Shown here: positions 2,929 to 3,084 of the stretch, piece after piece
Layout: each line of letters opens with the position of its first letter
How positions within the stretch are numbered: the stretch's first letter is position 1
Assembly: GCF_003334765.1 (NCBI RefSeq)
Contig: NZ_QOWT01000010.1
Length of the DNA stretch: 64,000 bases
DNA from: Escherichia coli
GTDB lineage: Bacteria > Pseudomonadota > Gammaproteobacteria > Enterobacterales > Enterobacteriaceae
Strand: one strand, 5' to 3'
Notes under the pieces: generated by a model
What the model was told of the DNA's origin: nothing
Database searches by the model: none
The model's input: the letters and a program-made list of their open reading frames with translations, nothing else
Program-made: the position numbers and the translations under genes

Positions 2929-3084
2929 TTAAGATATCAGAATCTTATGATTCGGGTAAAATTCTAAATAAATCAACATGTCATTAAAATCATCATAGCC
3001 ATTAGCTATTTCGGCTAAAATAGAGACTACATGTCTTCGGTCCATCTCACTTAAGGAGTGTAGTTCCGTTGTAAGTTTTTCCAT
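2929..3084 (-). CDS. Hypothetical small protein (51 aa), below the ORF-track length cut-off
   Basis: Hand translation of the minus strand gives MEKLTTELHSLSEMDRRHVVSILAEIANGYDDFNDMLIYLEFYPNHKILIS with a stop; it lies in the islet downstream of the candidate immunity gene. No strong Shine-Dalgarno sequence is seen. Confidence 0.3.
   Translation of the reverse strand: MEKLTTELHSLSEMDRRHVVSILAEIANGYDDFNDMLIYLEFYPNHKILIS

Follow-up and report, generated by a model that had tools for sequence, protein, structure and literature searches.

Gene yrhD of Escherichia coli Is Probably a Start-Less Remnant of an Orphan Immunity Gene

A minus-strand open reading frame of 51 codons at positions 2929–3084 of the window, that is, of the whole stretch of 64,000 nucleotides of Escherichia coli DNA analyzed here, is the already known E. 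coli gene yrhD, which stands in annotation without a function. We consider it, with a probability of roughly 85%, to be what is left of an orphan immunity gene that has lost its start and drifts neutrally, rather than a working small protein. The homology of the yrhD frame to a family of toxin-linked proteins is firm, and the inference that YrhD has no function is well supported.

Identity and Annotation of the ORF

Two readings of the frame have to be distinguished:

2929..3084, minus strand: yrhD, the annotated ORF (translation; RefSeq CDS in a 100%-identical genome; family alignment)
2929..3093, minus strand: 54-codon alternative from a GTG, MQAMEKL... (ORF listing; variants P0018 and P0019; lineage alignment)

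The annotated ORF translates to exactly MEKLTTELHSLSEMDRRHVVSILAEIANGYDDFNDMLIYLEFYPNHKILIS, 51 codons followed by a TAA stop, as the initial annotation had read it by hand. The same annotation regarded the ORF as unannotated, which does not hold for the public records. An exact-sequence look-up of the 51-aa peptide returned the UniRef entry “Protein YrhD” (YRHD_ECOLI), and genome AR_0011, 100% identical across the region, carries a CDS yrhD (WP_001307436.1, “protein YrhD”) at the equivalent coordinates; a 2012 paper gives YrhD as Swiss-Prot P58037 / EcoGene EG14370 (PMC3575317). Both the sequence and the locus, between yrhA and yrhB, are the same. The GTG at 3093, three codons upstream of the yrhD ATG, opens the 54-aa reading in the ORF listing; in some lineages this codon is ATG, which yields 41-aa “MQAMEKL...” calls ending at the Y39* stop described below.

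When the 481-nt spacer between yrhA and yrhB was shuffled with its dinucleotides preserved, 20% of the shuffles contained an ATG-initiated ORF of at least 51 codons, and only 3.2% matched the 91-codon stop-to-stop open frame at 3204–2932. The length of yrhD alone is thus within chance expectation, and it is homology that marks the frame as non-random.

Organization of the Islet and the Neighboring Genes

The first 8 kb of the window contain, in order, ugpQ (end), yhhA, ggt, yrhB, the islet, yhhY, yhhX, yhhW, and gntR. Positions 2400–5100 are 100% identical to several complete genomes, AR_0011 among them, and the sole difference from K-12 is the absence of the IS1 that interrupts the K-12 yrhA. 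The features surrounding yrhD are as follows:

2745..5075, strand not assigned: low-G+C islet with yhhZ, yrhA, and both relics (G+C; AMA1167 alignment and annotation; right limit approximate)
3670..4848, minus strand: yhhZ, Hcp (TssD) domain with a C-terminal toxin domain, Hcp-ET type (TIGR03344, PF05638)
3179..3673, minus strand: yrhA, intact in the window (NCBIfam YrhA family, NF038335, E 1.7e-35; annotation)
2445..2729, minus strand: yrhB, immunity-type gene of the Imm35 family (PF15567), downstream end of the array (Pfam)

The genes yhhZ, yrhA, yrhD, and yrhB all lie on the minus strand, with yrhD downstream of yrhA and yhhZ and upstream of yrhB. Residues 1–147 of YhhZ matched TIGR03344 (E 3.8e-34) and also PF05638, and a published classification places YhhZ among the Hcp1-family polymorphic toxins and gives it an HNH domain (PMC5714182, group 32). 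The toxin gene at the head of the array is yhhZ, and YrhA is its presumed immunity protein. At the other end, yrhB is likewise a small immunity-family gene of the same array; however, it is unrelated to yrhD in sequence, remains intact, and is conserved under purifying selection (dN/dS 0.07–0.18).

At 28–34%, the G+C content of the islet is below that of yrhB next to it (46%) and of the flanking ggt and yhhY (52–55%). In strain AMA1167, an E. coli without yhhZ, yrhA, and yrhD, the yrhB gene is retained and lies about 110 bp from yhhY, and the similarity to the window breaks off about 15 nt beyond the start codon of yrhB. This layout, together with the low G+C content, places yrhD in the yhhZ islet, at its downstream end. 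According to the reconstruction developed below, the E. coli array would run from yhhZ (Hcp toxin) through yrhA (its presumed immunity gene), the yrhD relic, and the relic of an 85-aa gene to yrhB (Imm35).

Homology of the yrhD Frame to a Family of 78–85-aa Proteins

Searches with the 51-aa peptide itself returned little. Pfam gave no match even at E = 10 and NCBIfam none, and a word-indexed search followed by full phmmer against 1.84 billion representatives retrieved only E. coli copies, some of them truncated, indel fusions, and artefacts. The homology surfaced only after the frame was extended upstream and compared with loci fetched via YrhA homologs, which are about 60–66% identical in other genera; these loci were compared with the yrhA-yrhB spacer in all frames. 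The yrhD frame is open upstream as far as a stop at 3207–3205, just inside the end of yrhA, and the first lead was an 82-aa gene of Leclercia that matched this extended frame (BLASTP, 39% identity over 56 aa). By profile search, this lead was widened to a family of 78–85-aa proteins from Leclercia, Lelliottia, Buttiauxella, Pantoea, and other Enterobacterales. The corresponding feature of the window is:

2932..3177, minus strand: whole immunity-gene relic of the 78–85-aa type (family HMM; BLASTP; codon reading of the 5' end)

From 18 family members, none of them an E. coli sequence, an HMM was built and run against all stop-to-stop segments of the six-frame window. It gave a single match, at 3204–2932 on the minus strand (56.9 bits, E 2.3e-16, HMM positions 4–66); the next best had an E of 4. 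In the multiple alignment, the E. coli translation spans the family end to end (positions 4–82) at 26–36% identity and carries the family residue at each of the 13 invariant positions (K, I, IFLE, L, E, L, L, Y, P, L), and against a 78-aa protein of C. koseri it reached 44% identity over 59 aa in BLASTP. Several nearly invariant residues of the family are changed in E. coli, namely the Asp of PD to Asn, the Gly of GL to Ile, and the Leu of LP to Tyr. The relic's 5' end abuts the stop codon of yrhA (3181–3179).

The alignment also explains where yrhD begins. Its ATG corresponds to the second Met of the conserved family motif AVEMME, so that YrhD comprises the C-terminal ~50 residues of the ancestral protein. 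The AF2 model of the family (pLDDT 93.8) consists of four helices (3–22, 30–45, 49–63, and 68–80), and the yrhD Met corresponds to residue 37, which lies within helix 2; a 51-aa product starting there would therefore be without helix 1 and half of helix 2.

The family itself has no relative in Pfam, NCBIfam, or the PDB: the family profile searched against PDB sequences and the confident model searched with Foldseek both came back empty, with a best E of 0.49. One Lelliottia member (P0169) is named “MafI family immunity protein” by NCBI. Like MafI, the family members would be small proteins of the immunity type encoded at polymorphic toxin loci, but they have no NCBIfam or Pfam match and no solved MafI structure appeared among the fold matches; the label could not be reproduced, as no NCBIfam model matched seven members, the Leclercia protein, or the E. 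coli frame at E up to 1. We also considered a colicin/pyocin DNase immunity protein, given that YhhZ is an HNH toxin and that the string “LIYLEFYP” recalls “LIYYP”; this Im-type assignment was rejected, as Pfam had no Colicin_Pyocin match for YrhD (E up to 10) or for the family.

Several database entries that resembled intact or distant homologs were set aside. The 88-aa protein P0002 (“MRKAHNNQ...”), with an apparently intact start, comes from a contig that is a rearrangement junction, and it was ruled out as an ancestral form. In P0013, an apparent distant homolog at 76% identity, all differences are C-to-T, which marks it as a conversion artefact. The YrhA-YrhD fusion ORFs seen in assemblies arise by small indels (P0025, 246 aa).

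Linkage of the Family With a Toxin Domain

In seven loci (L022, L031, L032, L033, L034, L036, and L039), the family gene lies immediately after, or overlaps with, an ORF whose C-terminus reads ...QANRAQKMFDELGIKNIEVKxVxE. The linked toxin domain, ...KWVDEN...RFDGVDGNVMIDRK...QKMFDELGIKNIEVKIV, is either fused to Hcp or forms the C-terminal domain of CdiA, where it stands behind the VENN motif. The toxin ORF of L039 is a CdiA of more than 2000 aa with the toxin domain after the VENN motif, PT-VENN being confirmed by Pfam. In C. koseri (L043), the yhhY-ggt site, the same site as in E. coli, contains a 366-aa Hcp-toxin whose Hcp part resembles YhhZ and whose C-terminal 122 residues are 82% identical to the CdiA toxin domain; the 78-aa family member (118.8 bits) begins 1 nt past its stop codon. 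Two orphan copies of the family (L024 and L038) keep a remnant of the toxin tail, its last codons, upstream. Remnants of this kind are the hallmark of orphan cdiA-CT/cdiI modules.

CDI and Hcp-ET loci have an established organization, in which a small gene found invariably behind one particular toxin domain encodes the immunity protein for it. Judged by gene position at at least eight loci, the family would be the cognate immunity protein of the KWVDEN...IEVKIV toxin domain, and its task would presumably be to bind and neutralize that toxin in the producing or sister cells. The E. coli copy differs from these relatives in position: L022, L031–L034, L036, L039, and L043 follow the toxin and L024 and L038 keep its remnant, whereas in E. 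coli the copy begins right at the stop codon of yrhA and has neither the cognate toxin (QKMFDELGIKNIEVKIV) nor a remnant of it directly upstream.

For the toxin domain, Pfam recognized only PT-VENN and a PDB sequence search found nothing; its AF2 model (pLDDT 54.7) was too poor for a structure search. The motif RFDGxDGxxMxDRK presumably recalls PD-(D/E)xK nucleases. A blastn “distant” search of E. coli complete genomes with the Citrobacter toxin-plus-immunity module matched only the pre-toxin part of cdiA, at a sensitivity so low that the relic was missed too.

The yrhD relic shares with the Hcp-ET effectors and their downstream immunity genes (PMC5714182, group 32) its place within the yhhZ array, and its intact C. 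koseri relative stands directly after a YhhZ-like Hcp-toxin at the same yhhY-ggt site. It differs in its cognate domain, KWVDEN...IEVKIV, which is distinct from the HNH domain carried by YhhZ; the presumed immunity protein of YhhZ is YrhA. The relic can also be compared with orphan immunity genes, which, like orphan cdiA-CT/cdiI modules, occur downstream of CDI, Rhs, and T6SS toxin genes (for an overview, see PMC4436062). The relic resembles them as a small gene in a tight array downstream of a toxin/immunity pair, with its cognate toxin not adjacent and with homology to the gene that elsewhere follows a specific toxin C-terminal domain. However, functional orphan immunity genes are kept intact, whereas the E. 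coli copy is decayed, being start-less, subject to neutral drift, and present in nonsense alleles.

Missing Start and Translation Signals

No ATG, GTG, or TTG occurs between the stop at 3207–3205 and position 3093 in any lineage examined. The start codon and the first ~3 codons of the family gene are absent from the E. coli copy, and at the position of the C. koseri GTG start the E. coli lineages have CAA or AAA. Thus, in contrast to the 78–85-aa family members, the E. coli copy is not a complete ORF with its own start. Nor is the internal ATG of yrhD preceded by a Shine-Dalgarno sequence, the 20 nt upstream being without GGAG or AGGA; this, together with stops at codons 23 and 39 in relatives, sets YrhD apart from bona fide bacterial small proteins. 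One promoter-like element lies upstream:

3237..3266, minus strand: promoter-like site TAGAGA-18-TATATT, inside the 3' part of yrhA (consensus scan, 9/12 matches)

The site is 153 nt upstream of the yrhD ATG. It appears as the row “yrhD TAGAGA-18-TATATT”, flagged H-NS, in a genomic-SELEX table for the RpoD holoenzyme, where the evidence is in vitro binding only (PMC3946193). The number of promoter-like sites found by consensus scan was no higher than in shuffles. Papers naming yrhD contained no report of E. coli yrhD expression, several of them referring to B. subtilis yrhD or to unrelated strings, and yrhD was absent from the searched supplements of an E. coli Ribo-RET study and of PIRT-seq.

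Variation of yrhD Among E. coli Lineages

The yrhD region was found in 3803 of 5426 complete genomes. Six to eight loci from diverged lineages were compared with the window. Across them, yrhD is 94.2–97.4% identical (92.1% in ETEC1748, which has a 9-bp duplication) and the flanking spacers 88–99%, and the neighbors are more conserved than yrhD (yrhA 97.8–99.6%, yhhZ 97.2–98.7%).

Two independent premature stops were observed: L23* (TTA to TAA at codon 23) in NC101 and YP3, and Y39* (TAT to TAG at codon 39) in FDAARGOS_448 and ETEC1748. In all four genomes yrhA, yhhZ, and yrhB are intact. The stop-bearing yrhD copies are flagged by PGAP as “internal stop” or “incomplete”, i.e., as pseudogenes. 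With identity bands over 221 nt serving as a proxy for alleles, the counts at at least 99% identity were 2791 for the window/K-12 type, 476 for Y39*, and 356 for L23* (plus 102 at 95–99%); an intact allele with four amino-acid changes (P0008 type) occurs in three genomes. About a quarter of the 3803 carriers thus have a premature stop, and the ORF is intact in ~73%. As these intact copies are at least 99% identical, their number says little either way.

The substitution pattern pointed in the same direction as the stops. Pairwise comparisons of yrhD gave 4–8 nonsynonymous versus 0–1 synonymous differences, with dN/dS of at least 2; the values for the neighbors were 0.1–0.46 (yrhA), 0.07–0.18 (yrhB), and 0.2–1.1 (yhhZ). 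When each variable site was counted once, yrhD had 13 nonsynonymous and 1 synonymous sites (two nonsense included), compared with 49 and 49 in yrhA, yhhZ, and yrhB together (Fisher P = 0.003). The upstream extension of the frame had 10 and 4, and the whole relic 23 and 5, again with two nonsense (Fisher P = 0.002 against the same 49 and 49). The 23 to 5 of the whole relic is close to the ~4:1 expected free of selection (yrhD has S = 30 and N = 123 sites), and the density of variable sites in it is about twice that of the neighbors. Purifying selection at the protein level was therefore not found in the E. coli copy of the 78–85-aa family.

One stretch departs from this pattern. A 63-nt run at 3090–3028, made up of 6 nt and the first 19 codons, shows no variation among the lineages compared, whereas its flanks vary at 13–18% of sites. 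The run could reflect some constraint, at P ~0.03 by shuffling among few and related lineages.

These results bear on the choice left by the initial annotation, which had proposed either a genuine small protein or the remnant of a second immunity or toxin-associated gene. The latter is supported by the end-to-end homology of the frame to a toxin-linked family. The former is not supported: stop codons in close relatives, named beforehand as evidence against a genuine small protein, were found twice independently (L23* and Y39*), and the suggested check of the substitution pattern (13 N : 1 S) revealed almost exclusively nonsynonymous changes and no protein-level constraint.

A Second Relic in the yrhD-yrhB Spacer

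The spacer between yrhD and yrhB is 199 bp long (2730–2928; 28% G+C), not ~250 bp as first estimated. Its earlier reading as AT-rich decayed sequence proved correct, since an 85-aa gene of Citrobacter has its first 54 codons represented there:

2768..2929, minus strand: second relic, 5' 54 of the 85 codons of a Citrobacter-type immunity gene (tblastn; HMM; intact C. koseri gene; lineage alignment)

In a frame other than that of yrhD, this relic reads NKKIPFDVLKKKS, a stop, NISRYLFRDYILSDELFSKPAFNNIFDEDERVFAQCITQE, and two further stops. It matches residues 2–54 of the 85-aa protein (C. youngae L012:4519–4677; tblastn, 47% over 53 aa, E 7.5e-12), and an HMM of 10 Citrobacter sequences matched 2887–2768 (E 2e-7). 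The second relic has AAT in place of the ATG start and an in-frame TAA at 2890–2888 in the lineage of the window, where other lineages have CAA, and it is cut off by TAATAA near the islet edge, all lineages being truncated there.

In C. youngae the 85-aa gene lies 20 bp after the yrhA homolog. In C. koseri an intact gene of this type is located 2 nt after a 417-aa Hcp-toxin gene and ahead of the Imm35 (yrhB) gene; because of this position after an Hcp-toxin, the 85-aa Citrobacter-type gene is probably an immunity gene as well. The yhhY-ggt site is thus a slot for Hcp-toxin/immunity cassettes in Escherichia and Citrobacter.

Evaluation of Alternative Explanations

That YrhD is a genuine translated small protein of 51 or 54 aa, with a function of its own in K-12/B-type lineages (newly acquired, or residual toxin binding), would agree with its annotation as a protein by PGAP and UniProt, with the ORF being intact in 2791 of the 3803 locus-bearing genomes and kept open in the P0008-type lineage despite four amino-acid changes, with the invariance of its first 19 codons across the lineages compared, and with the in vitro RpoD-holoenzyme binding upstream (PMC3946193). 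We nevertheless find this unlikely: the ORF lacks a Shine-Dalgarno sequence, its start falls halfway through helix 2 of the ancestral fold, its variable sites stand at 13 N : 1 S, two independent nonsense alleles occur in ~25% of carriers, no homolog of the 51-aa form was found outside E. coli among the 1.84 billion representatives, and ORFs of this length arise in a fifth of the spacer shuffles. Expression of the whole ~80-codon frame in some lineages, as orphan immunity via a non-canonical start (ATC/ATT at 3159–3154) or via coupling or frameshifting from yrhA, would account for the frame being open from the yrhA stop to 2932, which 3.2% of shuffles match, for the sharing of all invariant family columns, and for the indel-made fusion ORFs in assemblies such as the 246-aa P0025. 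It is very unlikely in view of the absence of a canonical start in every lineage examined, the 10 N : 4 S of the upstream extension, the changes at nearly invariant family residues, an HMM match that ends at position 66 of 82, the commonness of nonsense alleles, and the failure to find a cognate toxin-plus-immunity module in E. coli complete genomes at blastn sensitivity. There is only a slender chance, slightly above that, that the relic of K-12/B-type strains is still expressed in either form, as 51-aa YrhD or as ~80 aa from a non-canonical start, and still protects against the KWVDEN...IEVKIV toxin of Citrobacter, Leclercia, and relatives delivered by CDI or T6SS; if so, the relic would be a live orphan immunity gene in laboratory workhorse strains.

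The 5' part of yrhD might instead be kept for a non-coding role, for example as an RNA element or as a site through which yrhB or the array is regulated, the ORF being incidental. The 63-nt invariant run between variable flanks would fit such a role, as would an AT-rich islet with many promoter-like sites and an H-NS flag; however, the run reaches a P of only ~0.03 among few related lineages, the promoter count does not exceed that of shuffles, and Rfam had no match at or near threshold, two sub-threshold snoRNA-model matches elsewhere in the islet being taken as chance. We judge this role highly improbable as a rival, and it would in any case be compatible with decay from an immunity gene and would not replace it. 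That the ORF arose by chance in AT-rich intergenic DNA and does not descend from a gene could be argued from the frequency of such ORFs (at least 51 codons in 20% of shuffles) and from the lack of Pfam and NCBIfam matches to the 51-aa peptide taken alone. This reading has next to no probability left, being refuted by the family HMM match (E 2.3e-16, next best E 4), the end-to-end alignment, and the homolog with 44% identity at the same chromosomal site in C. koseri.

Proposed Origin and Significance of the yrhD Relic

The explanation that we prefer, decay of an orphan immunity gene, can be outlined as follows. The ancestral gene would have encoded a four-helix protein of 78–85 aa immediately after, or overlapping, the stop codon of the toxin domain, and yrhD would be the part of the decayed orphan gene that survives from an internal Met to the stop. 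Unlike the orphan copies L024 and L038, the E. coli relic is not preceded by a remnant of the toxin tail. In the simplest view, both relics stem from orphan immunity genes that were displaced or had once been useful and whose upkeep has ceased. Having no adjacent cognate toxin and no start or ribosome-binding site, and showing neutral drift and nonsense mutations, YrhD most likely makes no functional product.

The assignment is new for a known ORF, and the object itself is of an ordinary kind, unsurprising for polymorphic toxin loci. It supplies an ancestry for yrhD, a K-12 gene annotated for two decades without a family or a function. The results argue for listing the gene among pseudogene fragments and not among small proteins, which bears on small-protein catalogues and on genome annotation, where PGAP already treats the diverged alleles as pseudogenes but the K-12 allele as a protein. 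In addition, one toxin domain, used by both CdiA and Hcp, becomes linked to a probable immunity family, and Escherichia and Citrobacter are seen to share the yhhY-ggt site as a cassette slot.

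Variation of yrhD in Escherichia coli and apparent homologs

A comparison of the yrhD region showed that a 63-nt run (window 3028-3090), comprising yrhD codons 1-19 and 6 nt upstream, was free of variation in all E. coli lineages compared; in the stretches adjoining this run, 13-18% of the sites were variable (P ~0.03, shuffling of variable sites). The yrhD allele of ETEC1748 (L002:1030-1194) carried the premature stop at codon 39 (Y39*) together with a 9-bp tandem duplication, ATTTTAGCC, which adds ILA, and was called by PGAP as a 41-aa "hypothetical protein."

The records P0025, P0023, P0024, and L021 concern assembled sequences with altered ORFs. 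Among these were YrhA-YrhD fusion ORFs of up to 246 aa, created where a small indel or a deletion lies close to the stop codon of yrhA. The supposed intact start, MRKAHNNQ..., was rejected, as it came from a 588-nt metagenome contig in which unrelated sequence is joined just upstream of the relic. Two sequences from Logan assemblies, P0013 and P0015, were apparent "76% identical homologues" of YrhD. All of their differences (H>Y, S>F, R>W, A>V, P>L, and T>I/M) fit C-to-T changes on the coding strand; both appear to have been assembled from reads that had undergone bisulfite conversion or comparable damage, and not to be real variants.

Off-taxon records of YrhD and of the homologous 78-85-aa family were probably mislabelled or contaminant. 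In a "Flavihumibacter" MAG, one contig matched the yhhZ-yrhA-yrhD region of E. coli at 100% identity, and further labels were Bacillus amyloliquefaciens, Xanthomonas citri, Cupriavidus (a 1-kb contig), Sericytochromatia, and Rhodocyclales MAGs. The suspect records are loci L028, L033, L035, and L037, and members of the YrhD and family sequence clusters.

Two Rfam matches to eukaryotic snoRNA models, scoring well under the gathering scores, were taken as chance in AT-rich DNA:
Window 3283-3379 (-), 31.1 bits (gathering score 45)
Window 3136-3193 (+), 19.3 bits (gathering score 88)

Second relic and the toxin paired with the family

The AT-rich yrhD-yrhB spacer contained a second pseudogene:
Window 2768-2929 (-), match to codons 2-54 of a Citrobacter 85-aa gene
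In C. koseri, this gene starts 2 nt past a 417-aa Hcp-toxin gene. The E. coli relic has lost its start and, through a deletion at the edge of the islet, its 3' end; its TAA at 2890-2888 is lineage-specific.

CdiA C-termini and a T6SS effector fused to Hcp shared, at 82% identity, the toxin domain KWVDEN...RFDGVDGNVMIDRK...QKMFDELGIKNIEVKIV, and a gene of the 78-85-aa family always came after this domain, at the following loci:
L043:5191-6529, C. koseri
L039:3-6249, Leclercia
L031-L034, L036, and L022
The domain had no Pfam or PDB matches, and its AF2 model was poor (pLDDT 54.7).

Cassettes of the yhhY-ggt interval

The Hcp-toxin/immunity cassettes between yhhY and ggt differed among E. coli, C. 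youngae, and C. koseri:
Window 2445-5085, E. coli
L012 and L013, C. youngae
L040-L043, C. koseri
One C. koseri strain had two tandem Hcp-toxins, some E. coli carried yrhB only in an otherwise empty interval, and in O157:H7 the match to the interval was limited to 44 nt at the ggt end. The yhhY-ggt interval behaves as a cassette slot.
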